A DNA stretch of 59,098 bases, counting the filler, from Bipalium vagum (Eukaryota), in assembly GCA_037834085.1 (NCBI GenBank). It is 3 parts of 3 records of this genome, joined end to end, with 100 filler letters (N's around TTAATTAATTAA, not from the genome) between each part and the next. Parts side by side here need not be neighbours in the genome. Positions count along the whole stretch, not along the records: positions 17,710 to 42,214 come from JBBMKC010200496.1; 2 more parts are not named here. One strand, given 5' to 3'. Both the position numbers and the translations under genes were made by a program. Below the pieces are notes generated by a model. It was not told the origin of the DNA and did not search any database. It saw nothing but the letters and a program-made list of their open reading frames with translations. Shown in pieces: positions 13,922 through 47,941 of this stretch; position 1 is the stretch's first letter, and each line of letters opens with the position of its first letter.

Positions 13922-14369
13922 AACCTGGAATTTCTCTTTAGACATTAAAAAGCTTCGATACACATGACCGAGAGACCATCAACATCGACATTTTCTAGGG
14001 TCTCGTCTGTAACGATTCTCTTGCAATTCACCAGCATAGAATCTCGCTTTGAAGAGTCCCGGTGACGATTTCGGTTTTGATCGATATAATCTCTGATGGC
14101 CCGTGAGCGTGAGCAGGAATTTTCAACAAGTAATGTCTTTTGGACCTTTTCACTTTGACGGCGACATATTTGATGAATATTGTTCCCAAATCGTCCTTGA
14201 CATATTCCAATTCACTATATTCCGGGTGATCAGTAATTTCTTGCCTCAATTCTTCGGGGATTATATCGGCTATTTTTGATTTGTTGGCTTTCTTAAAATA
14301 ATCGGCGATTTTCTTCATAAATAACCTGGAATTTCTCTTTAGACATTAAAAAGCTTCGATACACATGAC
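13922..14369. repeat. Perfect 47-bp direct repeats (13922-13968, 14323-14369) flanking a 354-bp island
   Basis: aacctggaatttctctttagacattaaaaagcttcgatacacatgac occurs twice, identical, 401 bp apart. Confidence 0.95.
14028..14318 (-). CDS. 96-aa ORF of unknown function inside the repeat-flanked island
   Basis: ATG-initiated ORF with natural-looking composition, GC-richer than the flanks; no recognised domain. Confidence 0.4.
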   Translation of the reverse strand: MKKIADYFKKANKSKIADIIPEELRQEITDHPEYSELEYVKDDLGTIFIKYVAVKVKRSKRHYLLKIPAHAHGPSEIISIKTEIVTGTLQSEILCW

Positions 14370-17609: not shown

Positions 17610-17709
17610 NNNNNNNNNNNNNNNNNNNNNNNNNNNNNNNNNNNNNNNNNNNNTTAATTAATTAANNNNNNNNNNNNNNNNNNNNNNNNNNNNNNNNNNN
17701 NNNNNNNNN
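17610..17709. other. Assembly gap with artificial TTAATTAATTAA spacer
   Basis: 100 nt: Ns around ttaattaattaa (17654-17665), which encodes stops in all six frames. Confidence 0.97.
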
Positions 17710-19559: not shown

Positions 19560-20554
19560 TTTTTATTGGTTAGAAAAAAATCAAATGGCTTTCATCCTTG
19601 GTGACTTATCATGGTAATTATTTCCTCCTCTTACTATTATGGCTTTTAATTGTATTAGGAAATCCAAAAATGTTGATCTTTCTAAGCAAAAAATTAGAAA
19701 ATATTTCATTTAACCATAATAATTACATCATCGGTGTGTGATAATTTCACCAAGTGCATCAAAGCACCTATTGCTTTTGTTGTCATCCAAGTCAACGGAT
19801 TCAAATATAAAATCTTGAAAAAAATTCCACCAGTTCGATCTCAATGGTCATTGTACAGGCGTCTGAGTTGTCACATTTTTCATATTATTATGTTTACCTT
19901 TCTTTCCCAGCCTTTCCCGAAATGTAATGAATTTATCTGATCGTCAGGAATATCTCAGCCTGACAAAAAGGAAAGAGGTTTTTTGTCAAGCAATTTTTAA
20001 CAAGTATTGGTCAATTTCCAATGACTGATCTCCTTATGCTGACAAAAAAGCAAGTAACAACCTGAAATTATTTGTAATCAATATTCAATAATAAATTCTC
20101 AATAATATCGAAATCAAATATGAAATTAGCAAACCTGTCACAGATGAATTGTACAATGGTTTGGGGAAAAAAAATTTTCTGCAGACCATTTCCAGATTCA
20201 ACAAATATTTTTACGAGTTCGATGATTTTCTCTTCATTCTAAATATACTTATTCTTCATATATTCGTTGATCCGAGCTTGAGAGTAATTCGAATAAAACA
20301 GTACTTGCTTATTGAAGGAGTTCACCTTACCTCTAAAATTTATCAAACTATTGAAAATTTCTGCCTTTAAAAGCCCCACTGCTAAATGAAGCAATGAGTT
20401 CTTTTCATCGTCAGAACTATTGGAGTAATCTCCACAACTATTTAATGAAACAGGTATACATTGTACTGTTATAGAAGCAGCTTTCTCCCCTTGACAGTAG
20501 AATTTATCAGAGGGTATTTCTGTAAACTTCTTTTAAAGAAATTTTATAATCATC
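19560..20554 (-). mobile_element. Possible Sola-like transposase relic
   Basis: VCRKFF (cf. VCKKFFLNTL) and GFPNTIKSH (cf. SFP..ESHY); many stops. Confidence 0.3.
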
Positions 20555-20557
20555 TGA

Positions 20558-21650
20558 TAATGGGAAAAAGAAAGTTTTTAAAAATAAAAATTGACTATTG
20601 TTTCTAATTAATGAAAATAAAAAAAATAAATGTCTTTTAGAAAAATTTTGAGAACTGAAAAAGTTAATGTATTAATGGATGAAATTCAAAATAATAATAA
20701 TAATATAACAATTATAATAATAATAAAAGTTAAGACAAAGAAAATACATTTTTGTCTAACCTCTATGTATCGACTGCAGTCTGCTCCTCTCTTTATCAGC
20801 TAATCACCAAGGTATTCGCAGAAAATTGTTGATGAAACTGGAAAAGAAAATATAATGTATTCATGAAAGAAACTCAAAATAAAAAATAATAATATTAAAT
20901 GTTAAGACAAATAAAAAATATTTTTTGTCTAACCTCCGTGTATCGACTGCAAGCTGCTCCTCTCTTTAACAGCTAATCACCAAGGTCTTCGCAGTAACTT
21001 TTCGATGAGTGGAAAAGAAAATATAATGTAAAAATGAAAGAAACTCAAAATAATATTTAAAGTTAAGACAAAGATAATATATTTTTTGTCTAACCTTCAT
21101 GTATTGACTGCAATCTGCCCCTCTCTTTAATAACTCATCACAAGGGTCTTAGCGTGTATTTGTCACAGCGCAACACAAAACAATAATAATGGGAAAAAGA
21201 AAATTATAAAAAATTTATTATTATTATTTTTAATTAATGAAAACAATAAGAAATAAATTTCTTTTAGAAAATTTTTGAGAATTAGAATAGAAAAGTTAAT
21301 GTATTAATGAAGAAACTCAATAATAATAATAATAAAACAATAATAATAACAAAAGTTAGGACAGAAAGAAAATATATTTTTTGTGTTATCTCCATGTATC
21401 GACTGCAGTCTGCTCCTCTCTTTAACAGCTAATCACCAAGTTCTTTGCAGAATATTTTTTGATGAAACTGGAAAAGAAAATATAATGTATTAATGAAAGA
21501 AACTCAAAATAAAAAATAATAATATTAAAAGTTAAGACAGAAAGAAAATATATTTTTTGTCTAATCTTCATGTATCGACTGCAATCTGCTCCTCTCTTTA
21601 ACAACTAATCACAAAGATCTTTGCTCTATCACAGTGAAACAAAAAAAAAT
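20558..21650. repeat. Tandem ~160-180-bp repeat (5 core copies) with higher-order duplication
   Basis: Core aagttaagaca...tttttgtctaacct.catgtatcgactgca.tctgctcctctcttta.cagctaatcac near 20727, 20900, 21060, 21353 and 21528; lead-in block aatgggaaaaagaaa... repeated at ~20559 and ~21188. Confidence 0.92.
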
Positions 21651-24191: not shown

Positions 24192-25181
24192 TAATTAATT
24201 ATTAATAATCATACATTAATAATTATTTTAAATTAAAATAATTAATATTAAAAATTTGAAATTTCGGAGAAAAGAATAAAATGATATGATTTTTCAGTTA
24301 TAAATTAAATTAAAATAAATATTCTGAATCTCAAATAAAAACAAAACAAAATAAAATAATAATAATTAAATAAATAAAAAAATTCCATTTTATTTATATT
24401 TTAAAAAATATTTTTAAAATTATTATTTTTTATCAATTTTTTTTCATTATCTTCTGTTTTTCTAAATTATCACAATTATTTTCGTTGTCGTTTGAAGTCA
24501 TCAAAAATATCGACAGTGGAAAAAATGCTATTCAATAATAAAAATGATTTTTCCCCGTTATTGTTTATTTCTCTAATTTATTTAAACTTTAACCGCATGT
24601 TTCATTATATTTTATATTATAATTTATAACTGCAAATTGTGTTTGAAATGATAAAATTTTCTGAAAAATTTAAATGGAAAAGTTATTTTAAATTTCAATA
24701 AAATAATTTCAATAACATCCCTTCCTCATACATTGTCCCAGTGATATTTTTATATAATGTAATATCTTTTGTGTAAAAAGTACAAGGAACTTTTTAAGAA
24801 AACAAAAATTTATTTTGTCACTTTCAAAAAAGCATCATCAAATGTTGTCACCTCTCGTCTAAAATTCCACGTAAAACAATACCAAATTATTGGAAAAAAG
24901 TATTATCGATCGATATCTCTAATGGATTTTTTAATATAATAATTTCCGAGTACTTTTTACGAGATTTATCAGTTTGAATTAAATGATCGTAACAATATCA
25001 AATGGGAACCGTTCGAATTTTGAGATTCGGACATCAAAACCAATATGGAAATATTGAAACGATTAATTTGCTGGCAAAATGTTTTTGCTCAGCGTTATCA
25101 CAGCGATTAGCGAATCTTTGATATATACTTTGTCCCCAGGAACGTTGTTCTGTAAATAAATCATCATCATCAAATTACAGC

Positions 25182-26645
25182 TTGTTAAATGGGGCACCAA
25201 TGAATCAGGCAGAAAATTTAGAATTTGGATCGCTTCAAATTCAAGAAGAATTTGTTTTCCTTTCTCCAAATGAAAGTGGCAGAGAAGCAGACAATGTTAG
25301 AAAGGAATTTGTGGATCAAGGTCTCAGTGAAAATGTTAATTCTTTGCCGAAGAAATGTAGGACTTGCAGTTATCCCAACGATGAAGGAATAGAGACTTGT
25401 ATAATTTGTCTGCATTCGCTGGTGGTGACACATGAACCAGTCGTTAACGTCACAATCAAGGAAAAGGTCGAAGAAGAAAAGGCAAAGGTTGGTCAGAAAG
25501 AAATGTTATTCGACATCAATATTGATGAAGATGAAAGGAAAAATAAGAACGAGAAAAAAGTTTGGGAATGTAAATTGTGCAAATGTGTCTGCGTTCCGAC
25601 GACTGTCAATTGCGAAGCATGTTTGGAAATGCGCGACTCTTCGGATGTGCCGGAATCTGAGTTTCCCAACGACCAGTTCTGGCAACCTGACGAAAAATGG
25701 TTGTGCAATACTTGCGACACTTTCAATTTGGTTGATGTTTTCAAATGCACCAAATGTTCCTCATTGGCAGACTTTATAGATAAATGGAAATGTGAGAGGT
25801 GCACCTTTGACAACAGGAGACTGAGTGTGTTTTGTGTAACATGTTTAAAAACCAATGACAATTTGGGCAAATGTGCTCAGTGTCGTAAAAGCATAATCGA
25901 TAAACAATTCGGAGATGATCTTTGCAGTAAGTGTTTCGAGGAGAAGAAGAAAAAAGAAATGAAGAAAAGGCATTCATACAAGGCTGATCAGAAAATGTGG
26001 AAAATGGTAGACAACGATGAGGAGAAAGAGAAAAAAGCCGAACTGTTCTTTATTCAGGACCCCTTATACAAGACGTTCTTTTTTTTCAAGAAACCTGTTA
26101 ACAGAAAACTTGTTCCAGACAGTGAACAGAAAAGTAGCATGGCGTTTCAAGAACACGAGAACCAGGAGTCTTTTTATCGAAGAAAATTGGAGCAATGGAA
26201 AAGACGGTGTAAAAATTGCCAAAAAATGTTGCATGAAAACAGGGAAGTATTTTGCTGTCGGGAATGTGAACAGTATCGATGGTACTGTAACAACAGCGCC
26301 TGTAACGGGATTAATTTTATATGTTATGCCTATTGTCAGAAATGTAACGTTCAAAGGAATTCTGATTTGTCCGATTGCCAAAGCTTCAGCAAATGGATCA
26401 ACAATCGCGAAGTCGTTCTGTTCCAATGTGACATTTGTCTACGGTTCAATGACGACCAACGCTCGCAATGTGTCAATTGTGGCAGACAACGAAAGACACC
26501 AAGTCGTTACAAACAGTCTCAACTGTACGCTGGGTTTCCTTTTCCGGAATTCGTTACGAAAAACAAATTTCTCTTTCGACTGGCCGCTGCCGGATATTGG
26601 CTGTACTTTCAAATCAAGAACCGGAAGAAGTTTAATGAGAAATGA
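25182..26645 (+). CDS. Intronless multi-zinc-finger protein (~6 RanBP2/NZF-like fingers plus 2 other C4 fingers)
   Basis: 487 open codons in DNA that otherwise lacks long ORFs; repeated W-x-C-x2-C-x3-N-x6-C-x2-C, e.g. WKCERCTFDNRRLSVFCVTC and WLCNTCDTFNLVDVFKCTKC. First ATG at 25200; possible splice acceptor ending at 25139. Confidence 0.85.
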   Translation: MLNGAPMNQAENLEFGSLQIQEEFVFLSPNESGREADNVRKEFVDQGLSENVNSLPKKCRTCSYPNDEGIETCIICLHSLVVTHEPVVNVTIKEKVEEEKAKVGQKEMLFDINIDEDERKNKNEKKVWECKLCKCVCVPTTVNCEACLEMRDSSDVPESEFPNDQFWQPDEKWLCNTCDTFNLVDVFKCTKCSSLADFIDKWKCERCTFDNRRLSVFCVTCLKTNDNLGKCAQCRKSIIDKQFGDDLCSKCFEEKKKKEMKKRHSYKADQKMWKMVDNDEEKEKKAELFFIQDPLYKTFFFFKKPVNRKLVPDSEQKSSMAFQEHENQESFYRRKLEQWKRRCKNCQKMLHENREVFCCRECEQYRWYCNNSACNGINFICYAYCQKCNVQRNSDLSDCQSFSKWINNREVVLFQCDICLRFNDDQRSQCVNCGRQRKTPSRYKQSQLYAGFPFPEFVTKNKFLFRLAAAGYWLYFQIKNRKKFNEK

Positions 26646-26929
26646 ATCGGTTTTTTGTTCGTTCATGTCTTTTTTACCTTCCAAAATTAAATTACTCACA
26701 TGTAACATCCAAAGGTGGAAGTGGAACTTGTCAAATAGTTTTTTATCTAATTTTCGCTCGATGTTTTATTATTGATTTGAAAATAATTTCGATTTTTATT
26801 ATTATATTTGATAATTTTTATTTTTGGTGATATTCTAAATTGTCATTTCAAATACAATTGTGTTCTTCCTGTGCCTTTCTCTATACTCTCTATGAACACA
26901 GTACTTTTTTGATATATTTAATCCCATTA

Positions 26930-27450
26930 AGTCAAATTCGTATTGATATGCGTTCGAAGTATATTTATCAAAGTTGTGCTAAATTTTTCTACCATGACAC
27001 TTGTTTGTAGAAGGTAAGGTGAGATTGGAAATTCCGGTAATCTCTGCCATTAATTCGCTTTGATAATAGTTCCATTATCTGAAAGTACTTTTGTTAGCAC
27101 TCAATATCGATGTACTGTTTGGTCTGCAAATATCTTTGCTATGGTCTCTGGTTTTGATATTGGATATCATTTATCCACTTGCTTAAAGTCTTTCATATTT
27201 TGTCAGTTATATTTTTGTTTCCATCGTAGAGGCACAGCATCGACACACAATAGATGTTAGTAAAGTCATTGACATTTTTAACATTGCTTGCTATACTTGA
27301 TGACATTTTTGTTTAAATCAATAAATATCGCTGGTTATAATTATTTAGTTTTGGTCTTGTATCCGATCGTGACTGTCATTTTTAGGCTCTACAATTCCAA
27401 TCACATTAAGGAAAGACCAACTTTAAACAAATAATTTCTATCATTTGTAA
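26930..27450 (-). mobile_element. Degenerate gypsy integrase core
   Basis: VHRY*VLTKVLSDNGT (cf. RYGVP..ILSDNG) and MVEKFSTTLINIL (cf. GMVERFN.TL). Confidence 0.55.
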
Positions 27451-27769
27451 TATGTTACAATATCTTGGACAATTTATGGATTCTATCATCCACTAAAACC
27501 ATTAACCGCACTGTATCATTTCCATGTCAACTATTCAAGATCTGATGATTTCTTCCTATACGTTCTTTATTTGGTTTTACTGCAATTAACATCATTCCTC
27601 AACCACTGAAAACCTTTTAAGTCGATGAAAAGTCAATTCATTAAAAGATGGAACTACATTACTTGTGAAGTTTCTTTATATTATTAGATTATTTGATCTT
27701 TACCATGGGTTCCCGATATTGAACTTAAAATTTATTGAAGGTGAAAACATTCCCTTAATAGAAAAAAAC

Positions 27770-28875
27770 GGCTAACCAAGTTTGTAAACAAATTTCACAC
27801 ATGAAACAAAAAATTATTATTAAATAATCAAATAAAAGTAAATTTACTCTTTAAGTCGACATGAAATAGCTAAAGAGTGAAGCCTATTTTTCGGCTTATA
27901 CCGTTATGAAATAAATCAAAGTATCAATATCATTTGATTACCTAACATGAAAAACATTGGTTGTATCCAATTGAATGAATAAAATGTTTTATTTATTGAA
28001 ATCAGTTGAACTTCATTGAAACAAAGTTGATAATGATTGAAAAAAATGTTGAAAATCGCTTTAAAACCCTATTCTATAATGACAAGACTAAGGTAATGTT
28101 CTTTTGCTACTTGATAATGTCCCTAGTCATTCTAAAATGTATTTTTCAAATGTTAAATTAATATATATGCAACCAAGTAAAACTGCAGCATTCCAGTCTT
28201 TTGGAGCTGGAATCATTAATTTTTAAAAATCTATTACCGTAAACAAATTTTATAAAGGTGTCATTGCCAGCAGTAGATCGATAATTTTTGAAAACTTAAT
28301 ATGAGTTGAAATCAGATGTATTAGCTAATGAAATAATATTAAAATATACAAAGGGACTTACAAAATTCTGACTTCTCTATTTATGAATGAACAGGAACTA
28401 TATTAGCTGACTCTACCAATGGGAGTTGGTGAAAAATTATTATTTGAAGAAAATATTGGTGTTTCATAAACTAGTAAAGATTGGGAATGGGTATTAAATC
28501 CAATTCAAGAAGACAACTAACTTAAAAAGATGATGTCACCATCTTACCTATTATTTTATCAAATTCATGAGCTTACATAAGCATTAAAAGTAGACTACAA
28601 TTATGTCTTTCATAACAACCTTGAGAATCTGCAGAAGGATAGTGCAAAATGAGAAAAAAGCGCATTTCTACATCTAATAAAAAGGTCATAAGGCACATAA
28701 TGGAAATAAATAATTATTTATTAATAGTCTTGTAATTTTTTCTTTAACCTTTAATAATTAACATTTTTGTAATTTAAAACTCTATAGAATGAACACCTGT
28801 AATAAAGGAACACTATAATAAAGGAACATTTTCTATAACCACCACGAAGAACTCAGTGTAGCAGGTTTCACTGTT
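27770..28875 (+). mobile_element. pogo/Tigger relic
   Basis: LLDNVPSH..SNVKLIYMQPSKTAAFQSFGAGII; subterminal taataaaggaaca repeats; terminus gcaggtttcactg. Confidence 0.7.
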
Positions 28876-30492: not shown

Positions 30493-30679
30493 AGCAGTAT
30501 CTAAAACCAGACTTTGACGACAGGACCCAAACTTTTTTTGTCACTCACCCCCAGAGGGGGGCTCCCTCAAAAAATAAAAAACGTTGGGGGCATATTTTTT
30601 ACTCTTTTTCGGTAGCAGGGGCTCCCTCAAAATAGAAAAAAATATTTCCTCTCCTCAAAGTCTGGTTATACATACTACT
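30493..30679. mobile_element. 187-bp element with 33-bp imperfect TIRs, Polinton-like AGTAGT terminus
   Basis: Left agcagtatctaaaaccagactttgacgacagga vs reverse complement of right agtagtatgtataaccagactttgaggagagga (28/33); internal ggggctccctcaaaa occurs twice. Confidence 0.7.
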
Positions 30680-31199
30680 TCATTTATTATATTCTTATAT
30701 TACTAGTTTTTAAAAACTTAGAAATATCAAATTTTTTCTTTAAAAATAGAAACCAAAAGAAACGATTTAAATAACCTATCCAAATACAAAATAAATTTCC
30801 ACAAAATAAATATTATGAAATATTTTTAAGAGCTAAAAATTTTAATTTAGAAGAAAAAGATTAAAAATCTTAATCTAAAGACTTATTATGGTTAATAGAT
30901 AATTGCACATTTGAACTATATAAAAATAAAATAAAAGAACAACATAAAAATCTGAATGATATAATTATTTATAATTACTCGAAATAAATAAAGAGTTAAG
31001 TGTAGAAATATTAAAATTTTATCAAGGAAAATTAATAAAATTCTTAAGTAAAACTCAATAATCAATTTTTCATAATTTTTTAAAATTATAATTATTTTTT
31101 AAAAATCTTTGTTTTCCTAAAATATGGTATTGTGAAATTTGTGATAAATCTATTAATAAAAAAAATTCATCATGAAAATACAAAAATAGATGAAAAAAA

Positions 31200-31420
31200 T
31201 ATTCAACGAAAAAACAACGACTAAAAACAATGACAACAAAAAATCAACGATATCTACGAATAAAAATAACGACCTAAAAAATAAAACAACGACTGAAAAA
31301 CAACGATTAAAAATATCAATAACATCAATAAAAAACCATCGACTGAAAAGTAACGATTAACAATAACAATAACATCAATAAAAAACCAACGACTAAAAAA
31401 AATTTTATCAACGACGAAAA
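31200..31420. repeat. Short degenerate tandem repeat (aaaaacaacgact-like)
   Basis: About ten caacga-type cores in an A-rich array inside the Maverick. Confidence 0.8.
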
Positions 31421-31469
31421 ATAAAAATCTAAATATTCAAAACATTCAAGAAAGATTTCCATCTTTTTT

Positions 31470-32270
31470 ATAAAAACAGGAGGAGATATTCAATCAAAAA
31501 TTAAAAATAATAAATTTTTAAATAAATTTACACATGGAAAATACCCAGGTGAATTACATTTAAAATCTTTAAATCCTTTAAATAAAACAAATCCAATTCA
31601 CAATTTTACGGGTCAATTGGGCTCAAGTGAACTTTTCATAGAAGTCTGCTAGTGTTTGTAAATTAAATAAAAATATTCAGCTTTTTAAATTATTTTAGTA
31701 ATGCAACACCTTCAAATTGCGAGAAACTCCTTAGAGTCTTATTCTACTACTACCATTGAGAAATCTTTTGAAGGTTCTCAGGTAATGACTGATCACGAAA
31801 GTAATAACAAGCAAGAATTGGACAATCCGCTGCCAAGCCCCAATGTTCATTATGATAAGAATATGGAGAAGGTTCAGAGCCTAAACGGAGGTGGGCTTGA
31901 GAAATCTAATCAATTTCAATGATACCTTAAGATATAGTCCAGCTTGAATAGAAATATTCAAGATGTTCTGCCTGGAACTCATGTTGATATACGTTTAGAA
32001 AATTATAATGAAATAATAAATAATTATAATTAAAATCAAGATTTATCAATTCTCCCAAATCCAAAATCTGATTCCATTCCAATAAATCGAGTTGATCAAG
32101 CAGCTATGAAACATTATTTAAAATATATATCAACAGATTAAAAAGATAGACATGTTGCAGATGTTGAAATGATTCATGAAATGAACAACATTCAAAATCC
32201 AACTTCAAGAGAAAAACTTGAAAGAGCAATTGTAAATTATGAAAACAAAAGTAGTTTTAGGATTAGGATT
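31470..32270 (+). pseudogene. Maverick parvovirus-type phospholipase A2 gene, interrupted
   Basis: GGDIQ..GELHL..HNFTG | PGTHVDIRL..PINRVDQAAMKH..DRHVAD..MKTKVVLGLG; ~357-bp insert at 31614-31970 splits the GPG loop. Confidence 0.8.
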
Positions 32271-32339
32271 AGGATTAGAAAGATCTTCAAAAAACCTCGC
32301 TAATTAAAAAATATTTGAAAAGTCTAAAATTTTACCTCC

Positions 32340-33915
32340 TGAAAAAAGTAAGCAATTAGCAAACGAACTTCATAAAGAAATTAGAAAACCTAGAAATTTT
32401 CTAAAAGTAAAAGTAAATAACAAAGATGATATTTGGTCTACAGGTTTAGCTTTGTTCCAGGAGAATAGGATTATAAAATAATTCTAACAGTTATAGATTT
32501 ATACACTCGTTTTGCTTTTGCAGTTCCTGTAAAAAATAAAACTTTGTTGGCGCAAACCTACCCCTTAGCTTATCTGACCTTACTAAGGTTGCTATGGGCT
32601 TAACTATTGAGCTCGAACCCAAAAACACAAAAATAACTTCTCCAAAAATATATTAATAAAATGAGGGTAAGACCCTTTTGTTTACAACAACAAACTGCAA
32701 CAGGCAGTTACCTCAAACAAAATGCAACAATCGGCAGTCAAACAAAAACAACAAGCTGCTCAGGCAGTCTACAATCACCACTCCTTAATTAAAAAGCTGT
32801 GCCAGGGAAAACCCTGGTCACAAATATAAAATTACCAAGATAAAACATTACCTAATGGCAATTTTCTGGGCGAAAAACAATGAATTTTAGCTCGTTTATA
32901 TACTATTTTACTGTTCATTTTAGCGTCTCTGATTGGTCAGTTAAGCTGTCAATCATGACGTACCTTCTATATTTAAGTATTACTAAAAATAAAATAAATT
33001 TCTAAAAATTGAAAATTATAATATTATAAATTCATGCTGCTGACTAAAAATCAGTAGTTATAACTATTTAAATTTATTTTATTAAAAATTTATTATAATT
33101 TTAGGATAATATGCTACTGATTCGAAATCAGTAGTTACTCATAAATAATATTTAAAATTTATTTTTCAAAATTTATTTAATTAATTATTAATAATTAATA
33201 ATTAAAATGCATAATTTTAAATTGGCCAGCGTATTAATTAAACTTTATTTTTAGCCAAAAGTTTATATACAGAGATTATAAGATAGGAGTGGAACCTCAA
33301 CAACTTGATGCATTTGATAAAATATTTGAAGATTCTAATAGAGTTCCAGAAAAAATTTGGTTAGATAAAGGAACAGAATTTTATAATAAAACATTTGAAG
33401 ATTTTTGTGAAGATAATGAGATCGAAATTTACTCAACAGAAAATGAGGGAAAAATAGTTGTCATTGAAAGATTTAATAGAACTCTAAAAAAATTTAATGT
33501 TTAAAAAATTTACAGTATAATGAAACAGAAAATTGTAAAATCTTTTACCAAGCTTAGTTAATTCCTATAATAACAAAATCCATATTTCAATTGGAATAAC
33601 ACCAACTGAAGCATCTAAAAGTCCAACGAAGTTGGTAGAGTCTATGGCCAATCCTGAAAATTTAAAGAATGATTCAACTGATAAAACTTCTGAAATGTTA
33701 AAGGTAAAAATAAATATCATATTGGAGATAAAGCAGGAATTTTTAAATATAAAAATAAATTTGGAAAACGATATACAGCTAAATGCACAAATGAAATTTT
33801 TATTATAAATGAAGTTTATTTCACTAATCCAAATGTATATGGATTAATAGATTTAAAAGGAGAAAAAAATCTTGGGCAGTTTTATGAAAACTAATTACAG
33901 AAAAATAGGTTTTAA
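32340..33915 (+). pseudogene. Maverick retroviral-like (c-)integrase, split by a solo LTR
   Basis: LANELHKEIRK..DDIWS..ILTVIDLYTRFAFAVPVKNKT | DAFDKIF..PEKIWLDKGTEFYN..IERFNRTLK..IGITPTEAS..IGDK..EIF. Confidence 0.9.
32545..33302 (-). mobile_element. Solo LTR (758 bp) with 4-bp TSD ACTT
   Basis: TGTTG...CAACA termini; ACTT at 32541-32544 and 33303-33306; interrupts the integrase. CCAAT and TATA-like motifs read on the minus strand near 32895-32940. Confidence 0.88.
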
Positions 33916-34049
33916 ACTATCTACTTTTCAAGGTTAGATTTTAACCAGGCTAAATATATGTTTTACAATTTTTCAGATTTTATCTAATAGAGAATTCTTT
34001 CTCCTATCAGTCACAAGGTGCTAGAGCCGAAGGCTCGCTTCCAAAACAT

Positions 34050-34245
34050 AAATTTTATATTGGAGATCGTGTAAGAATTTTTAAATAGAAAAATAAATTT
34101 GAAAAAGATTACACAGCAAAATGAAATTTTTATTATAGATGAAATTTATTTTACAAATCCAATTATTTATAGAATTATAGATTTAAATGATGAACCAATT
34201 CTTGGAAGATTTTATGAAAATGAGCTTCAAAGAAGCTTGCTGTGA
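34050..34245 (+). pseudogene. Second, diverged copy of the integrase C-terminal segment
   Basis: FYIGDRVRIFK.KNKFEKDYTAK..EIFIIDEIYFTNPIIYRIIDLNDEPILGRFYENELQ; paralogous to 33715-33910. Confidence 0.8.
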
Positions 34246-35199
34246 GATGTAATCTTATGAACTGCAGCGTAACTGCAAGTGAGACAAAGTCTCAGAAGAG
34301 CAGAAAACTTTGTTTTATGACATCATTTTTTATTAATTGAAAACTATTAAATGTAATATAAAGATTTTATTATTATGAACCCGTCAAGCTATCAATCCAT
34401 TTTACTAACAGTAAATTTGATTAATTTATTTAACTAAATTTTTGATTTTCTAGTTGTAGCTATTGAAGGAAAACTGAAGGAAAGAAAAAGATATAAACAA
34501 TACATGAAGATGAAGCAAAAGAATCTGAAGTCGAAAAACGAATTCAGCAAAATATTTGAATCGAATGCAGCTATCCAAAATTTAAGATTAGAAGGACAAA
34601 GAAATAGTCAGGAGCAAGAAAATCCAAATGATATTAATTAAATTTTATATTGATTATATTTATAATTATATATTATTAAAAGTATAGTTAGTTACTTATT
34701 TTATTTATTATTAATTATTTATTAATTATATAGTTTTATTTTAAACAATCCACTTATTTTTTGGACACAGTTTCTATAGCTGGTGTCCGTTAGTGAAAAA
34801 TATTAAGCATTATCAGCTCAAACTGATAATGACCTATATTTTATTCAAAAAGTTTAAGCTGTTTTAACTTTGAATACCATTTTTATGGTCAGAAATATAA
34901 ATAGATTTTATAATTAAAAATAAATATATAAATAAAACACATATAACCGTACATATAATCAGATACGGTCTATGGATAACACAATAATAAATCATAATTA
35001 AAAAATAAATACATACAATCATAAAGGAAATTATCTACTTTACTGTAACATTTTATTAACTAAAAGTTAAAGTAAATAAAATATTACAGTAAGACTAAAA
35101 CAAACAAATTAATTATAAAATTTTTGTGTTTTAAACAATTCCAAAAATTCATCATTTCAATCAAAATAGATCAAAATAAATTTCTCAAAATCTTTCAAT

Positions 35200-35577
35200 T
35201 TTTTTATTAAAATATCCTGTCCGAAATTACAGAAACAAAACTCCAAAATATCATAAAAGTAGGTAAACCAAAATCAATTACTTTAAATGGTGAAAATGAA
35301 TGGTTATTCAAAAAAATAATTAATCAAGTTAAGGAACAAAGTGAAGAACAAAAATCAGGCGATGTACTTCCATTAATACCAGTTTTAGGAGCTATCTTTA
35401 GGAGCAGCTGGTGGAGTTGAAGGGAGAGTAGCAACTGCAATTCAAAAAGTAAATGAAACTCAAAAAACCGATTTAGAGAAAAAAATATACAAATGGAGAT
35501 CGATAAACTTAAACCAAAAGAAAAAGAAAAAATCAACCGGAGCTGGACTTTTTATAATCCATATTTTGGAAAATGAT
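35200..35577 (+). pseudogene. Maverick Gly-rich accessory ORF (PX-like)
   Basis: GDVLPLIPVLGAIF/GAAGGV..VATAIQKVNE...GAGLF.NPY resembles the GGFLPL..AGG..A....N..GxGLYL.PY ORFs of Polintons; frameshifted. Confidence 0.6.
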
Positions 35578-35969
35578 TAAAAATTAAAATTTTAAATTCT
35601 TCTGAATATAAAAGTTTACAGAAATCTGAAAGGAAAGATTTAAAGGAATTATTTCAAAAATTTTGTTAAAATAAAATTAAAATTATTAGTTTATATTTTG
35701 ATCGCTACGAGAAAAATAATTAGAAATATTTCCCAACATAATTTTTATTATTTTATAAATTATAGAATAAATAAAAAACAAAAATGGATGAATGCGATTG
35801 AGAATATTGTGAGAGATGGAGTATTATAGAAAATATGGATTTTACAACTTATGAAATTTTGATCATTTTACTAGAGGCTGAAGATTAATTTTTGTATTTT
35901 TTTTAAAAAATGAGTTGATTTTCAAAAATTAAAAATATAAATATACTTTTAGAAGTTTTTTGTAAATAT

Positions 35970-36313
35970 GAAATTAATTCAACATCAAATTTGGATTTAA
36001 TAGATTTTACTGATGATTTAGAAATGAAATTACTGAAAAAAAACGCAAAGCTAATGAGGCCAAAGGCCACATAAAATCTGAATTTCCATTAATTATTAAT
36101 TATCAAATTACAATTCAAAAAGGAATTCATTGGGTTGGATATTACAAAAATTTTGACTTTGATTCTTATGGATTACCATCACTTGAGGATTTAGAAAAAC
36201 ATGTTAAGGAATATTATAAATTTGATTTTCAGTCTGAAACAGATTTGGAATATTGTGGGCATTTATCTTTATATGTTTTATATTATTTATATAATAATAA
36301 AAAATTTAATTAA
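35970..36313 (+). pseudogene. Maverick adenain-like cysteine protease
   Basis: IINY..GIHWVGY..FDFDSYGLP..FQ..YCGHLSLYVL: catalytic H, D, Q and C in the expected order. Confidence 0.85.
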
Positions 36314-36509
36314 ATTTAAGAAGAGTTGGAATATGTTTTTTTTGAGAAGTTGAAACTAAGAATTAAAAATTAAAAATTAAATTAAAAAAAAAGAGATGAT
36401 TCAGGCGATAAATTTTTTGTTAATATTGCTGAAAATTGAGAACAGTTTTATACTAAAATTAAACCACCAATTTATTATGATGATGGTGATTATGAAGAAA
36501 TTAAAAATA

Positions 36510-36690
36510 TTCAAAATGAATCAGAAAATAAATTTTTAAATGTTACTGGAGATTCAATGAAAGGAATTTTAAAAATGAATAATAATAAAATAATAAATAT
36601 TCCAAATCCTACTGAAAATAATGGTGTTGTAAATAAAAAATATATAGATGATAAATTAAATATAATAAAAATTATATAAGTAAAAAAATG
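36510..36690 (+). pseudogene. Fibre/stalk-like repeat ORF remnant
   Basis: FLNVTGDSMKGILKMNNNKIINIPNPTENNGVVNKKYIDD fits the G..M.G.L.M..NKI..L..P....D..NK.YVD motif. Confidence 0.55.
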
Positions 36691-37479
36691 ATTAATGTAA
36701 ATGATAAAACAATTAATATTTAAAAATTTGAAAATGACTTAAATGAATTAAATACAAAAATTGAATATATAGAAAAAGAATTCCATGATAAAAAACTAAA
36801 ATCGAAAAAATATATTTCAAAACTAAAAATCTTTTATGAAGAAGATGATTATTAAAAATTAAATGAAACATTTAAACCAAATATTTGGCATTCATTTTGG
36901 AAATCACAATTATCAAAAAGTATAAATGATTCCGGTTTAAATATCACTGCAAATAATGATAAATATTTATTTGGAAATATTTCTAATTCTTTAATTGAAT
37001 TTTTTACAAAAATATTAGTTGCAGAAAAAGCAAGTCTTAAAAACATTATATTATAAATTTTAGAACAGAAAAAAAATGTTTTTGGTTGATATAATAATAA
37101 TAATTCTTTTTGTTAGTGGAAAATCAATAGGATGAACCTAAGTAACAGAAGCTAAATTTTGAACCGATTTAATATTTTTTAAATGTACTAAATCACTTAC
37201 TTTTCCAACACATTCATAGTTTTTCTATAATTCAGAAAAAAATATTCAATTCAACGATTTTTCCATGAAGTTGTAAAAAATGAATTTCAATTTAATTCAA
37301 AAAATAAAAATTTTATGATCTATTAAATCTATTTAAATATTAAAAGAACTTTATTTACAAATAAAATGGAAGAGATTGAAATTCCAAATAAACACTACAA
37401 TGTAGCGTTCTGAGACTTCGTCTGAATTCTTTACAATGTAAAATATTTTAAAAATATTTTAAAAAATATTTTAAAAAAG

Positions 37480-38029
37480 AAAGATTAAAAATTGAAAATT
37501 TTATGAATGAAAAAAAAATTTTAGAAGACTTATTAACACATTATCAAAATTTAAATTTAAATACTCAAAAATAGATTCTCATTTAAAATTAGGAACAAAT
37601 GTTGTGACAGTAATTGTTGGAGTTGGATCTGCAATAATGACAGGAGTTTCTACTTTAGGAATTGGATTAGGTATTTATTTTCCAATTGGTACTTCAATTT
37701 TTCCTGCATTAAATTTATTTATTTTTGAAACAATTAGTAAAAATATTATAAGTAAAAGAAAAAAACTTTATAGAGAAATTTGTGAATCAATAGAAAATTT
37801 AATTAGTAAACTTTATATGTTTCTAATGAAAGCATTTAAAGATAAAATATTAACTAATGAAGAAATTGAACAAATAAAAATAATTATTAATGAATATAAA
37901 ATTTTTGAATTAAATAAAACTTTATATTTATTAGAAATTTTTCCAATATTAAAAAATTTAGAATTTGACTCTCTTCAAGATATTTATGATTTTTTGGAAA
38001 TTGAATATTATGAATTTCCTTGGGAATAA
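37480..38029 (+). pseudogene. Maverick hydrophobic accessory ORF (gasderminX-like)
   Basis: Gly-rich hydrophobic stretch followed by KAFKDKILTNEEI (cf. SKAL.D..IS.EEF). Confidence 0.5.
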
Positions 38030-38275
38030 TTATTTTAATTATTTTAAAAAAAAATCTAAATGGATGAAAATTAAAATTTATTCGATCTTAAGAAAAGAAT
38101 AGAAAAATTACATAAATTACAAGAAGTAAAAAAGAAATTTGAAACTAATCAATTAATTCAATGGAAAGAAGAAAGAGGAATTCAACAAGATTTAACAATT
38201 TTTCATAAACATGTTACTGATGCAGTTAATAAATCTAAACAATAAATATTAAATGATGAAAACAAAACTAAAAAA

Positions 38276-38990
38276 TTAATTGTTTCTGAAAAAAATGAAA
38301 TAAGAGATGATCTTTTTTGATTTTGTTGGTTTATTTAAAACACAGAAATCATAATTTTTTTCATAGGCAGATCTATTAATATTTATTGATAAACATCTTT
38401 CACAAATAAATAATTCATCATCTTCACTCGGCTTAAGTCTATATCCAATTTCTTCATTAATCCATGCTTTAATATCTTTAATTAAAATGTTATGATATTC
38501 ATGAAATAATAAAGATATTGTTTTATAATTATTAATATCCTGTTTTTTTCTTAAATCAGTTTCAGAAACAGAAGCATTAGGTTCACGGATTTTGCTTGCC
38601 TTTTTATTAATACATTCAATCATATAAACATTTATTCCTAATCCATTTTCTTTTTCAAATTTATTAATATTACATATTTTCATTGGCATATATTTTTCAT
38701 TATATTTAAATTTATTTTCATATTCTTTATACCAACTCACTCTTTCTTTATGATGAGAAATTTTACGTTGTATAAAATAAGAAATAATTGACCATATTAA
38801 ACCTTTTTTTATTTTGATTCTGAAAATTAATTATTGAATGAGATTGAAAAAGTAAAGGAATAAATGATCTTTCTCTTAAAACATTTATATCATCAATTGA
38901 AAGTGTTAAGTGAGAAAAACTATCAATTATCCACCCAGATTGGTATGAGGATAACAATTTTGTGATTTTTATATAATATTTCATATTTTG
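38276..38990 (-). pseudogene. Protein-primed DNA polymerase B, N-terminal region only
   Basis: QSGWIIDSF..L..SFIPL..IINFQN; PM..INKFEKENGLGINVY; LLFHE.H.ILIKD; FICERCL. Exonuclease and polymerase cores absent. Confidence 0.85.
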
Positions 38991-39769
38991 GTAATGATCT
39001 TTTTATTTTATTTTGTACGTATAAGACAGTTTACTAGTTTTCTAAATATTAGGGTTTAAAACTTGTATAAGACGCATCCTATAGTCGCTAATATACTGTA
39101 ATGAATAAAAATTTAAAAAATTTATAACTTTTAAAATGTAACTATTATTGTTGAAAGAAATAAATAAAGATATCTTTTACTAATAAAGAAAAAAATGGAC
39201 TTTGGGTCATTAGTCAGGCCCTTGTGTTTTGTTTAAAAGTGACCAAGTCCCACAACACCCATTTACAATCCATCGATATGTGCACATAATCTAGTTGTTT
39301 GAATATCATTTCACAATAAACTGCTTTCGACTAAATTTTTTGCGTAACCATAAAAATATTATCAACGTTCGAGTAAATAACACCAGAAATATTGATAATC
39401 TACAGTTATATTTACAGTTACTTTAGAAGCACTTAGTAAATTTTAAATTCTTTAAGATATTAAATTTTTAAAATATCTTTTTGTATATCAATAGCAGATT
39501 TTCATTTGTAAATACTAATTCATAATTATTTATTTGATACGTGAAATAGAAAAGTTTAATTTTAAAAAAACCCTTGTTTAAAATATTCAATTGCGACATA
39601 ATTAACGAAGGAGTTTTGAAATTAAGTTTTATTACATATTTAAGATTGTATTTAAGTAGAAATATGAAAATTTCAAGAAATAGCACGATGTATTTATATT
39701 ATTACGATAGAAAAATTTAAAGAAACGAGGCCAAAAGATTAAGTTGTAAGTTTCGAAAAGTTGAGATAA

Positions 39770-42214: not shown

Positions 42215-42314
42215 NNNNNNNNNNNNNNNNNNNNNNNNNNNNNNNNNNNNNNNNNNNNTTAATTAATTAANNNNNNNNNNNNNNNNNNNNNNNNNNNNNN
42301 NNNNNNNNNNNNNN
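42215..42314. other. Assembly gap with artificial TTAATTAATTAA spacer
   Basis: 100 nt, same design as 17610-17709. Confidence 0.97.
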
Positions 42315-42369
42315 TTATTTATTTTTTTTTTTCATTTTTAGATTTTCCATATATTATTCAATGACAAAC

Positions 42370-42561
42370 TTTTCTACTATGCCAACGGCTTTTTTTACCC
42401 TTCGATTTGCAAAAGCAATTCATTTTGATCCAGAAAAAAAAATAATAGAAAGTTTTTGGACTAATAATTATATTGAATGGAACAGGTAATGTATTTCCGT
42501 CTTCAAAATAACTGATCCACAATTTTGATCTTGCAAACTTCCATTCAATATCTGCTTGTTC
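42370..42561 (-). CDS. TRPC: TRPC channel exon (TRP box)
   Basis: Acceptor ttccag; [36 protein letters not shown]...; probable donor gtttgt; 192 nt, starts in phase 0. Confidence 0.93.
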
Positions 42562-44017
42562 CTGGAAAGAATAAATGAACTCATAATTTAATTAATGAAA
42601 AAGAATTTTAAAATATAAAATCATTTATGGAAAAAAATATTTTAATAAAACATATTTAATTATTGAAAAATAAAAAAAGGCGGCAGTTTCCCGCTTTTTT
42701 GATTTTTTTTGTTTGTTTTAATTAATTTATAATTTTTATTTTTCAAACGCTTAGCTTTGATATTTTGTAGTAAAACGTGCAGTTTATATCTTGATTATCA
42801 TATATTTCGTTTAAGCTTATATATTTTTACTAAAATCTCAGGTTTGAACTTACATAAAGATTTTTTTTATTTTGGATTTATTTTAGAAATTTTTAAAATA
42901 TTTTTTAAAATTTATTTAAGAAATTTTGATTGATATAAACAAACCAATTTTTATTAAATCATTTTAAAACATAAGTCAATAAAAAAGTTTTGTTTGATTA
43001 GTTTATTGTTATGAATAAAGTAAAAGAATTAATTAATTATTATTTAAAATGAAAATTAAATAATTGTTTTAATTTATAAAAAATAAAAAAAAATTAATTA
43101 ATATTAATACTATTCTATTCTTATAAAATTATGCAAAAATAAATTTATAGAATAATTAATTAATATATATATATATATATATAATTATGAAAAATTTCTG
43201 GTATATCTGAAAATAAATAATTCAAAAATTATATTTGTTATTAATTAAATTATTTATTAGAAGAAATTGATCTACATGGCTTAGAAAGAGTAATTGAGGA
43301 TTTTGAAAAAGAAGATGCAATTAATATTAAAAGTTATTTGAGTTTTGATGAGAATGCGTTTAAAAATTATAATTATAGTTCTGAGGATGCAGAAATTTAG
43401 AGTCATTTAAATGTGATATAAATAGTGAGAAAAGTGACTCTGTAAAATTGTGACATTACATTGGGCTAATTACATTGTCGTCCAGTAAAATGAATTTTAA
43501 AGACATGTTAAACGAATTAGATGTGTTATCAATTTCCTTGATAATAATCCAGATAAAATCAAGAAAGACATAAAAAATATTTTTTAATTAAAATAGAAAA
43601 TTGAAATCAATGAATCAGCTGGAAATTACATCTTTACCGAACACAAAGTTAGTTTTTTTGTTATATATATCACTCGTTGGCAGAAATTTGTTGACTCGCA
43701 TGGAAATTATTTTGATTAAAAAAGTTTATTTTCCATTGACTTATGACGTTTTTACTTTTATAGCTGTAAAATGACATTATTTTTGCACCAACCTAATATT
43801 TTACTTTAGGTACCGAGTTTTTAGCCTGATATTCGAATTTTCATTAAATTCTGTTTTGTTAGTGTTGGCATTTTTTATTAGGTGGACAGGTAAATAATGT
43901 GGACTTTCTTATATTTATTTTTTATGATAAAAGATAAAATAAATCTTATTGATTATATCTTGTATTTTTTTAAATATGCGATAATAATTTAAATGTTATC
44001 AAAGTTTTATTATATAA

Positions 44018-44560
44018 ATGTTTATAGATTTAGGCACGGCAAAATTTATTCATAGAAAAGAGCATTTGTGGGGAGTTTTGATTCACTTTTTTATTATTAT
44101 CGGAAAAACTGCTGCAGAGACCTACCACATACTTTGTGATGTATATGTGAACATGCCTCATTTAATAATAGCTGAGAGCCTTTCAAAAGCGCTTCAAAAA
44201 TGACCTCAGTTTGAGAGACAATGGAATCTCATATCTTACTTCTGCATTTGAATACCAACAATTTCAAGCTCTACTGGATGAAGAAACATGTCAAACGAAA
44301 AAAAACTTGCGATGCAACTAAATATTGCTCAATAAACAGTTTCTAATCACTTAAATACACTGGACAAGATTATAAAGAAAGAGACATAGATGCCACAAAA
44401 CCGGACGATAGACAATTAGAAAATAGAAATGTAGTCTGTGAAATGTGGCTGGAACAATACGAACACAATTCTTTTTTACATAAATTTGTGATAGAAGATG
44501 AGAAGTAGATTTATTATGAGAATACCAAACGTCATGAATTATTGGTTGATCGGGGTTAAG
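44018..44560 (+). mobile_element. mariner relic in a TRPC intron
   Basis: KTAAETYHILCDVY; ALLDEETCQT; FLHKFVIEDEK.IYYENTKR. Confidence 0.8.
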
Positions 44561-44874
44561 ATTTAAAACAGACTGCAGGGAGCGTTATTGGCGAAAATCA
44601 AATATCTATTGTACATACTTGTTAATATTTTTTTTTCATTATGTAGAATATAGTTAAAAAAAGCTTTTAATAAATTATTAGTTTTAAGAGGTATTGTTAT
44701 ATTTTAATTTTTTAAAAATCTTTTGTTATACTTTCCTTTTTATTTTACTAGTATTAATAAATAATAAAAAACGGTCACTATAATGAAAATAAGAAAATAT
44801 TAATATTCTAATAATATAAATATAAATATCATACTAAAATTTATGTGAAATAAATTTTTTTAATAAAAACTCAC

Positions 44875-44969
44875 AGCAATGAGCTGATAGGAGGTATTCA
44901 TCATGGCAATCAGCATGTTCAGTAATACTATCAGTGTTATGAATGAATATGTTCCGAACATTAATTTTC
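44875..44969 (-). CDS. TRPC: TRPC channel exon (S6)
   Basis: tttgcag | (G)[31 protein letters not shown] | gtgag; 95 nt, phase 1 to 0. Confidence 0.95.
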
Positions 44970-45690
44970 CTGCAAAAATATCATCATATAGATTTAACAA
45001 ACGAATTTTTATGTTATTTTGAATTTATATTGACTTTTTCCCAAAGTAAAGATTGGAAAAAAATCTCATTTATAAGTATAAAAATAATATTTAATAATGA
45101 TAAAACAGAACAGAAATAAGCCGAGGTTATTTCCGAAAGCATTTTTAAAACAATCAGATCTGAAAGGGAAATCGACATGGGATTTTCATATGAGGGACGG
45201 TTCTTTTCTTTTCATTTTGAAAGGTATATATGATTAAGCTTTTCTCACAGCATTTTATGAGAAGACGATCATGAAGACAATAATAACAAAAACACGGATT
45301 CTCCATTTTAAGGTTCACACATTTCCTCTATAAGTAGAATTCTAACTGAAAATATTTTAACAATGATGATCAAGATTATTTTCATTTCATTCATTCAATA
45401 TAGCGAATGCTGTTGAGACAGTATGAGAACAGGACATAAGATGAGTTTATCAATAATTATTTTATATCTTTTTCAACTGGGTCCAGTGTTTTCACTTTTA
45501 TATCAAATATCAAGAAATTAGAAACGAAATAATGGTTAAAAAGTATAAAACCAGGCTTGATGGAAAAAGAATTTAATGGATTGAATGTGGATGAAATACG
45601 AGTTTGGTTCGATATTTTGATAAGACGTAAGTATACTAGAAATAGAATATAAAAATATCACAATTATTTAGGTTTTAAGTGAAATCGTAC

Positions 45691-45791
45691 CTACAAATTC
45701 AGTAAATTGGTGAGGATATTCCAGATTTAGATTACTGAGATCAACCAGTCCATATGTACTCCAATAAAGACTTTGCACGATCTCAAATAGG
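45691..45791 (-). CDS. TRPC: TRPC channel exon (pore helix/filter)
   Basis: cttttag | (N)LFEIVQSLYWSTYGLVDLSNLNLEYPHQFTEFV(G) | gtacg; 101 nt, phase 2 to 1. Confidence 0.95.
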
Positions 45792-47941
45792 CTAAAAGAT
45801 TTTATAAATAATAATATTACTAATAGTACTTCATACTATTTTTAATACAACTACGAATTATAGGTTTATTCAGTAATATCCCACATACAAATGTATCGAA
45901 TTATATTTAATAAATAAATAAATAAAATCGTACATTCATCAAAATCTACTCTAAAATTTCTTTTTGTTTTATACATTTATGCCATTAATAATGAGTTACG
46001 TTGTATTTGTCAGTATTGAATGAACAAGATAAAATATTTGCGTTTTGTATGGTTTTCAGGATCTACGACAAAATATAAACACATGGAACTACGTTAGATA
46101 AAGAGATCTTTTGTCGCATGTTTATTTACAGTTACTATAGACTATTTCCAAATCCTTGACCATATCTTAAAGATTTTGACCATAATGTTATCATTTATTA
46201 TTGCATAGATAAAATACTCTTACAAAACATGATTATTATTTGAAAAATCGAATGTCATTTATTTTATTATTTCTTTCAATTATTACTCCAAACAAACAAC
46301 ATAAAGCTTGTGTATTTTCAAGATATAACTCCATTTTTCAAAGGCACTGCAAAGATTATGAAGGTTAGTACCACAATAGGGTCAAATTAATAATTACAAA
46401 ATAAATTATTTTCTTTTCAATTTTTATCGGAAATTCCGAAATTAGGAACTGATAAAAATATTTCCCTTCAAAATTGAGTGACGGACTTAAGATAATTTTA
46501 GAATTACCAGGACTCGAAGGAAAAACAAAATAATAAAAGTTTTACTTGGAAGCCGTTCTCATCCAAGTAGCAGTGGACTGTTGTATTGGTCGGCCTACGG
46601 TGACAATCGCATGTGAAACAAATAAAAGGGAAATTACACCGAGTTGCCGTTCGATGGTGATTGTTTATTTTTGTAAATCATAATTTTTGTCGAAGATTAC
46701 TTTTAATTTAAACAAGAGATTTACATTGGAAGATCAATTGCAAAGGTTTTTATTTCCATGTTATATATAGCCAAGGATTATAAATGGGTCCAGTCAGGCT
46801 TGATCGTCTTTGGTCGAACCATTCGAGTATAGATGATAGTCCAGGGACTCATGTCTCTCTCGGTTTCAGGTTAATTAGTTTTCTTAATATTTTTTATAAT
46901 TTTCTTCAATATTTATAAAGATTAATTAACTGCTTTTTTCTTTACATTATTTGATTATGCGAATTGTTTTCTTTATTTGATGTGAACGATAAATATATAT
47001 CATTTGATCAGCAGAAGATTCTATCGAAAGTGTTACTGATTGTTTGTGTTGATTTATGTTGTGAATTTTTATAAAAGTTACTGTGATTTCTGTGTTTTTC
47101 TGTCATAGGACAACAAGAAAATAAGTGAGAAGTCATTGAGTTTGTTAAGAGTAACGTTTTAGTGCACATTAATATCACAACAGAAGAACTGACAAGTTAT
47201 AAGAGAATATTTTTATTGTTATTTCCTGGTTTCAGTTCTGGTGTAACAAAGGATAAAAATTTCTTTGAAGTATTCAAATCTACATTTATAATGAAAAAAG
47301 TATGATCTTTATCAGTAATAGGCGGAAGAAATTTTTTTTCTAGTTAAATCGGATGAGATCTAAACAAAGAAGAACATTATTTTTAACCTTAAGGTTAAAA
47401 AAGTTATCGACGGATATCACCCAGTTTGTTCAAGTTCTTGGTTTAAATGGTCTTTATACTGAAAGTTTTTTAATGTTCTTGTTTTAAGTTAAAAAGAGTT
47501 TATGGCTCAGCCAAATATTTTATTTATCATTGAGAACTTTTAAAGCGTAATTTATAACATGAGCATATTTCTGGTCAGTTATTAACTGGTTGGAGTTTCC
47601 TCTTTGTTTCAGGTTAGTGTCATAAGTCGAAATAGTAAGTAATTATGATTAGGATAACGAGTACACCAGAATGAAGTTAAACATTTTATAAAAAATATTT
47701 ATTCAATAAATGTTCTCATAAAAAATACACATATAACTATTCTATATATCAGTAAAGGATAATTTTTTAGTTATTAAGTGTGTGGGTTGAAAATGATCCT
47801 TTTAATAATCAAATGAGGCGAACTAATTTATATATTCTAAGTATTGCCAAAAGCACTAATGATTAGATAAAAAATAAATAAAATAGATCCAAATGTAAAA
47901 GCCATTCACGTATGATATATAAATTAATATGTATTTCTTAC

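Follow-up and report, generated by a model that had tools for sequence, protein, structure and literature searches.

The window analyzed here, a stretch of 59,098 nt from the genome of Bipalium vagum (GCA_037834085.1) joined from three parts, contains a single long intact ORF, as the first-pass annotation had stated: among the 17 frames of at least 100 aa, the next independent ones are pieces of transposons not exceeding 186 aa, and when the bases of the ORF region are shuffled 1000 times, the longest frame has 207 aa. The frame is open on the plus strand at 25122–26645, that is 507 codons from stop to stop. An earlier start, at 25182, had been proposed; it lies inside the same frame, but the first in-frame ATG is at 25200. 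The ORF has a GC content of 39%, compared to 21% upstream and 30% downstream, hence the reported excess over the flanks is real, while it is not distinctive, as transposon remnants of the window have 39–40% and exons of a neighboring TRPC gene 35%. The features assigned to the locus are as follows.

24905..24990, plus strand: possible core promoter and tiny first exon (candidate, from sequence only)
25200..26645, plus strand: coding sequence, first in-frame ATG to TGA, 481 aa
25350..25409, plus strand: finger 1, NZF-like; second Cys followed by S-Y, Ile preceding the last Cys, Asn retained, Lys in place of Trp
25563..25622, plus strand: finger 2, degenerate RanBP2-type; K-C dipeptide, Asn lost
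25698..25757, plus strand: finger 3, RanBP2-type lacking the T-F dipeptide; D-T here, G-N in relatives
25785..25844, plus strand: finger 4, canonical NZF; Trp, four Cys, T-F and Asn, with Thr at the third contact position
25872..25934, plus strand: finger 5, C-x2-C-x13-C-x2-C (x15 in the relatives P0002 and P0003)
25935..26207, plus strand: linker between the finger blocks; charged, Lys-rich, poorly conserved
26208..26480, plus strand: family-specific three-finger cassette, fingers 6–8
26686..26691, plus strand: candidate polyadenylation signal ATTAAA, 41 nt past the stop, followed by T-rich sequence

Upstream of the coding sequence we observe a tandem ATCGAT at 24905/24909, which we take to be DRE-like, TCAGT at 24969, presumably initiator-like, an ATG at 24983 and a GT at 24989. 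A phase-0 intron of 151 nt, extending up to an acceptor-like AG ending at 25139, would connect this candidate first exon to the main frame. The gene had been described as intronless, and this holds for the 481-codon stretch but is unproven for the transcript, because the ATG at 24983 and the GT at 24989 could be spliced in phase to this AG. A second acceptor-like AG 5' of the ATG ends at 25180, and at 25189–25203 on the plus strand there is an out-of-frame ATG…TGA of four codons, whose stop overlaps the main ATG; it could dampen translation or hint at a true start on an upstream exon. A stop-free frame of 254 aa in another phase (26011–26775, plus strand) overlaps the 3' half of the ORF. Frames of such length arise in 104 of 2000 synonymous permutations when any frame is considered and in 36 of 2000 in the same frame, Pfam gave no match of note for it, and it is probably due to chance. 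No Rfam matches were found within 24450–28000.

Eight four-cysteine units can be counted in the protein, far above chance and in agreement with the approximate number given previously. Six of them have the form C-x2/4-C-x10-C-x2-C, compared to at most two in 10,000 protein shuffles; two further units are C-x2-C-x13-C-x2-C and C-x2-C-x12-C-x2-C. All 32 finger cysteines are present. The only Pfam family found is PF00641, which gives just 15.2 bits with the whole protein, while fingers 3 and 4 alone score 29.4 against a cut-off of 27; as expected from the first inspection, Pfam identifies no catalytic domain in the ORF product. Taking the fold consensus from PMC7154859, we find the RanBP2-type pattern W-x-C-x2,4-C-x3-N-x6-C-x2-C in fingers 3, 4, and 7. 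Of the six fingers assigned to the RanBP2/NZF type, fingers 1 and 8 have no Trp, and the structural Asn is lost in finger 2.

The ubiquitin-type T-F dipeptide is confined to finger 4, one of the five x2-type fingers: it is not found in fingers 2, 3, and 8, and finger 1 has S-Y. The T-F read earlier in finger 3 (WLCNTCDTFN) is one residue out of register, D-T being the dipeptide that follows the second Cys. Finger 3 adjoins finger 4 via a conserved nine-residue linker, and the best PDB match of finger 4 is the HOIP NZF1 (E 4e-4). Finger 1 aligns with an S-Y finger of P0002, and the homologue of the degenerate finger 2 in P0002 and P0003 is an S-Y finger with Ile. Finger 5 yields only weak matches of the treble-clef type (E 0.015–0.08). 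It had been called A20-like, but no zf-A20 match is seen at E up to 10 (in this isolated-finger search the filters drop most matches above E of about 0.1), and its loop is of 13 residues, and of 15 in relatives. The loop of A20-type fingers has 11 residues.

Scanning of 1,835,955,588 representatives with HMMER produced three matches, P0002 (E 5e-28), P0003 (7e-21), and P0004 (1.5e-6), with 30–36% identity. All three form clusters of one member and are known only by a UniParc identifier, and from the range of these identifiers we assume that they are worm gene models. High AT, abundant transposons, and long introns, as seen here, would be compatible with the genome of a free-living flatworm. 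P0002 is collinear with the ORF product over 387 columns (27% identity), including all eight fingers. P0004 has an array of the same type as well as the C-terminal cassette; fingers 3 and 5 are absent from it, and its C-terminus is extended by about 180 unrelated residues. P0003 is partial, being incomplete at both ends, with no start Met and no cassette; it is 93% identical to P0002 (274 of 294 residues) and has one more array finger, five of its fingers being of the S-[FY] type. The N-terminal S-[FY] fingers of P0002 and P0003 are arranged in repeated units of approximately 47–65 aa, which points to recent internal tandem duplication. Word-index searches added nothing to this set: the single protein gave no match among 2358 candidates, while the alignment A2 gave one of 2851 and the cassette in longer proteins two of 976, all of them already in the query.

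For verification of these similarities, the query was shuffled 300 times with Cys, Trp, and Asn fixed, preserving the finger skeleton. Since none of the 300 shuffles reached the whole-protein score with any of the three relatives, the family similarity extends beyond the cysteine skeleton. The cassette score was likewise never reached with P0002 and P0004, and was reached by 291 of 300 shuffles with P0003, which lacks this region; for the block of fingers 3–5 compared to P0004, two of 300 shuffles reached the observed score. With P0002 the similarity of the tail is marginal, as 11 of 300 shuffles attain it; P0002 terminates at a comparable position, not more than about 10 residues from the C-terminal lookalike. 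A BIR-like reading of the C-terminal tail was rejected: it has no Pfam match and is absent from the relatives.

Hence the label of orphan does not apply to the gene, as UniParc contains three relatives whose fingers follow the same order; the alternative suggestion of a lineage-specific family agrees well with these three distant proteins. A young retrocopy, also suggested, is at odds with collinear relatives at approximately 30% identity: a frame intact at such divergence points to long purifying selection in the family, which argues against recent retroposition. No poly(A) run follows the stop, and a convincing direct repeat was not found. We regard it as very likely that the ORF is a real gene under selection, and the best reading of the sequence comparisons is a small, old, and narrowly distributed animal family. 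A recently silenced or neutrally drifting family copy, to which one could attribute the degenerate finger 2, the loss of Trp from finger 1 and the absence of the last Cys cluster of P0002, seems very improbable, given that all 481 codons are free of stops and frameshifts although the genome is AT-rich and the neighboring element ORFs are all broken, and given the complete set of finger cysteines.

The ORF is located on a 24.5-kb contig bounded by gaps at 17610–17709 and 42215–42314. Both gaps carry an identical artificial spacer (N44, TTAATTAATTAA, N44), and the order of the contigs on either side was inferred by the assembly. On both sides of the ORF, Pfam identifies broken pieces of transposases and integrases, which confirms the dead transposons noticed earlier. 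Six of 12 flanking element fragments have any Pfam match, only one of them above the cut-off: HTH_48 (E 9e-15) is the strong match in the flanks, while rve, DDE_1, HTH_Tnp_Tc5, and DDE_3 are below their cut-offs. Upstream, a broken frame on the minus strand ends about 1.2 kb before the ORF; it has no Pfam match, and we presume it to be transposon-like. Downstream, there is a DDE_1 fragment (28.1 kb) and, further on, debris with an integrase (33 kb). The latter belongs to a degraded element at 30500–39000 with an integrase core at 33241–33501, a partial duplicate at 33.7–34.2 kb, and every frame broken; we take the 31–39 kb region to be a Polinton-like remnant, with the fragments at 35.2, 37.5, and 38.3 kb presumably representing Polinton/Maverick-like genes.

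Elsewhere in the window, a degenerate array at 20550–21630 consists of about five AT-rich units of 160–190 nt with a 630-nt higher-order repeat, and a perfect 47-nt direct repeat (13922–13968 and 14323–14369, 401 nt apart) lies inside a GC-raised transposase-like remnant. The TRPC gene reported previously is confirmed, with exons on the minus strand matching TRPC4 at E 9e-19. Exons of this TRPC4/5-like channel occupy 42361–53649, and the last one located ends after the TRP box with no stop; neither later TRPC exons nor calpain exons were found by a motif scan of the window. With a gap between the two, the ORF may be situated inside an intron of TRPC in antisense orientation, or beyond TRPC.

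One possibility is that a large mobile element or an endogenous virus carried the gene as cargo, acting as a ubiquitin decoy against host defense. Compositional data would be compatible with this: GC3 at synonymous positions is 192/464 (41%) versus 81/273 (30%) in five TRPC exons (p 0.0016), TRPC with its 294 codons being the only comparison gene, and CpG is undepleted (1.0 versus 0.42 in the TRPC exons). The coding stretch is uninterrupted, two of the relatives are 93% identical and show an expanding finger array, and integrase-bearing debris is located 4–13 kb downstream. Moreover, ubiquitination and apoptosis domains are known from the giant Burro elements of planarians (PMC6431247), but the available part of this source mentions no RanBP-type finger in giant planarian retroelements. 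On the other hand, no relatives were confirmed in IMG/VR (among two and 260 pattern matches) or in JGI metagenomes (among 130 and 526), and none was found in 50,697 phage records or in PHROGs (0/3), all these collections having poor coverage of transposons and viruses of animals. Among inverted repeats in the flanks, the best (20 nt, 24635/26840) does not exceed the chance level, since scores as high are obtained for 67 of 300 shuffles and for 47 of the 95 real pairs. Moreover, the intact ORF has unrelated broken elements on both sides. With no relatives in viral, phage, or metagenome collections and no terminal repeats, the earlier proposal of viral or mobile cargo gains no positive support, and we consider it unlikely.

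A stand-alone host gene is the probable identity of the ORF. Alternatively, it could be one large exon of a longer gene, e.g., calpain-15/SOL, TRABID, HOIP or a gene with some partner domain yet to be named, whose other exons are small or lie across the gaps. The two acceptor-like sites before the ATG and the short out-of-frame ATG just upstream are consistent with this, as are the missing start Met of P0003, the long extra C-terminus of P0004, the termination of the contig at gaps on both sides, and the multi-finger N-termini known for SOL calpains (PMC12805371). Against it, the frame continues for 54 codons beyond finger 8 to a stop, no strong donor match is seen after finger 5, and P0002 is a complete-looking model of similar size. 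Of the 118 same-strand contig frames of at least 35 aa, we also scanned for domains the 96 with a GC of at least 0.22, frames internal to the ORF and one short stretch of the upstream flank having been set aside beforehand; none of the 96 matches a calpain, OTU, or RBR family, DDE_1 and rve being the only matches. Hence neither the ORF nor the 96 contig frames scanned up to the gaps contain the domain expected if the ORF belonged to calpain-15, TRABID, or HOIP. The length-unrestricted HMMER search gave no known gene, and, as a weak argument, a search for the cassette in proteins of 182–2000 aa recovered only P0002 and P0004 among the 976 candidates. Overall, an exon of a longer gene is an improbable explanation.

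The C-terminal cassette is specific to the family. It consists of finger 6 (C-x2-C-x12-C-x2-C), finger 7 (W-x-C-x4-C, with the spacing of the first finger of ZRANB2, F1, and of TAF15) and finger 8 (RanBP2-type, with an L-R dipeptide), the linker before finger 8 being of near-fixed length with conserved S-D and F. Within the cassette, pairwise identity among the three proteins that have it is 29–34%. The near-fixed spacing together with 12 invariant Cys and 10 other invariant residues suggests that fingers 6–8 may fold as one unit. Finger 6 had been described as FCS-like, and it has no zf-FCS match in Pfam. FCS zinc fingers are marked by an F-C-S motif. The extra Cys of finger 6 is not conserved, because relatives show W-C or L-C followed by C-x2-C. 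AlphaFold2 gave a mean pLDDT of 36 for the single sequence and 45 for the three-row alignment of the cassette, both too low for use. In the ESM Atlas the cassette matches mostly clusters of RanBP2 fingers with scores up to 0.82, to be treated as leads only, and the whole protein has no usable match.

As the pattern of finger 7 had been likened to RNA-binding fingers, we considered that the protein is mainly an RNA-binding factor, with fingers 7–8 as a diverged ZRANB2-like tandem (x4 then x2) assisted by the basic linker. The best PDB matches of finger 7 are ZRANB2 F1 (E 0.18) and TAF15 (E 2), which share its spacing and the aromatic residue after Asn; the cassette profile matches ZRANB2 F1 (E 0.16) and F2 (E 0.025) in the same order, and in P0002 a K-K is located close to the arginine positions. 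The E-values are weak throughout. RNA contacts of ZRANB2 F2 are made by Trp79, Asn76, Asn86, Arg81, and Arg82 (PMC10349855); compared to them, finger 7 retains only the aromatic residue, the two Arg being replaced by Cys and Tyr and the first Asn by Gly. The position before the first spacer of the last C-x2-C pair is Gln, versus Asp in ZRANB2 F1 and Asn in TAF15. Moreover, the aromatic residue after the structural Asn is Phe in finger 7 and in P0002, while P0004 has neither this aromatic nor the Trp and Asn in finger 7. Thus the resemblance holds for the spacing, but RNA binding is doubtful, with one of four in-finger contact positions of ZRANB2 kept, and some fingers of the RanBP2-type fold do not select RNA (PMC6384913). 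A mainly RNA-binding role therefore appears unlikely.

We return to the N-terminal array. The NZF is defined by four Cys, Trp, Asn, and Thr-(Phe/Tyr) after the second Cys, typically with a hydrophobic residue inside the second C-x-x-C (PMC11372445). Among the 20 C-x2-C-x10-C-x2-C fingers of the four proteins, 13 have [ST]-[FY] (SY in six, SF in five, TF in two), and the third contact position in these 13 is always occupied by a beta-branched residue (T in eight, I in three, V in two). Six of the seven remaining fingers are at the finger-3 and finger-8 positions, and one is the degenerate finger 2; hence 13 of 14 array positions have [ST]-[FY], mostly with S rather than T, from two to at least five such fingers per protein. 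The third contact residue is Thr in finger 4 and Ile in finger 1, and Val or Thr in the counterparts of finger 4 in relatives. In PDB, the family profile finds its best matches in RYBP, HOIP, and TAB2, namely in their ubiquitin-binding NZFs.

The prevalence of [ST]-[FY] in the array makes ubiquitin binding by the protein rather likely, finger 4 being the likeliest putative binding site. Several observations are against such a reading: the strict T-[FY] is seen in only two of the 13 array fingers; in the ORF product finger 4 alone is canonical, and Thr occupies the third contact position of this finger instead of one of the usual hydrophobic residues. Ser in place of Thr is outside the NZF definition as taken from PMC11372445, and we found nothing on Ser in the open-access literature. 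Further, nine of the 13 fingers are not independent, because they come from P0002 and P0003, which are nearly identical over their shared part. Of the catalysis-free ubiquitin-chain reader originally proposed, the catalysis-free multi-finger protein and one true ubiquitin-type NZF are retained, while the binding itself is still a prediction.

We tentatively favor, at somewhat less than even confidence, a stand-alone host adaptor with no enzyme domain that holds ubiquitin-tagged proteins via its N-terminal NZF-like fingers. By analogy with NZF biology (PMC11372445), finger 4 with T-F, and more weakly finger 1 with S-Y and Ile, would make a low-affinity contact with the Ile44 patch of ubiquitin, and the tandem fingers could add avidity, as in TRABID. 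The conservation of the three-finger cassette is consistent with a folded unit that would bind a specific partner. The protein would then bridge ubiquitinated substrates to the cassette partner, as TAB2/3, SHARPIN, and RYBP do with a single NZF.

Another reading, which we hold to be unlikely, is a reader of ubiquitin chains, or a decoy, restricted to one lineage, whose S-[FY] array would grow and shrink through tandem duplication as in an arms race between host and parasite, possibly residing first on a giant mobile element, and whose cassette is an undescribed recognition module. If true, it would extend the NZF ubiquitin code from T-[FY] to S-[FY]. More generally, if Ser can replace Thr in the TF motif, many RanBP2-type fingers classed as non-ubiquitin-binding need re-examination.

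Compared to known systems, the predicted adaptor resembles the ubiquitin-binding NZF adaptors TAB2/TAB3, SHARPIN, RYBP/YAF2, and NPL4, with which it shares the lack of a catalytic domain and the canonical W/4C/TF/N finger, represented here by finger 4. Each of those proteins has one NZF combined with its own domains, whereas the new family has from two to at least five array fingers, mostly S-[FY], and three further finger types, and outside the fingers they have no similarity to the family. To our knowledge, multi-NZF proteins with no catalytic domain are uncommon among characterized NZF proteins. TRABID/ZRANB1 and HOIP/RNF31 resemble the ORF product in their tandem NZFs, with single-finger matches at E 4e-4 to 1e-2, but it has no AnkUBD/OTU or PUB/UBA/RBR domains. 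RanBP2/Nup358 and Nup153 also contain repeated RanBP2-type fingers and give the best matches of finger 8; these are single-finger matches only, Pfam finds no nucleoporin domain, and the dipeptides are [ST]-[FY] here versus L-L/L-V in the nucleoporins. ZRANB2, FUS/EWS/TAF15, and RBM5/10 share the W-x-C-x4-C-x3-N-F-x5-C-x2-C form of finger 7 and the x4-then-x2 order; in the ORF product, neither the Arg-Arg pair nor the Asn contacts are present, and there is no RRM or RS region. The N-terminus of calpain-15/SOL is similar in having several RanBP2-type fingers, of which only some have TF (PMC11372445, PMC12805371); in contrast, the ORF and its contig have no calpain protease or SOH domain, the HMMER scan gave no SOL match, and the non-TF fingers are not of the T-L type.

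No description of the family architecture or of the cassette was found in the main text of open-access planarian and flatworm literature. The family pairs a variable finger array with a conserved cassette, which is unexplained as a unit by Pfam and PDB. As the building blocks are all known from the systems listed above, the surprise is moderate.
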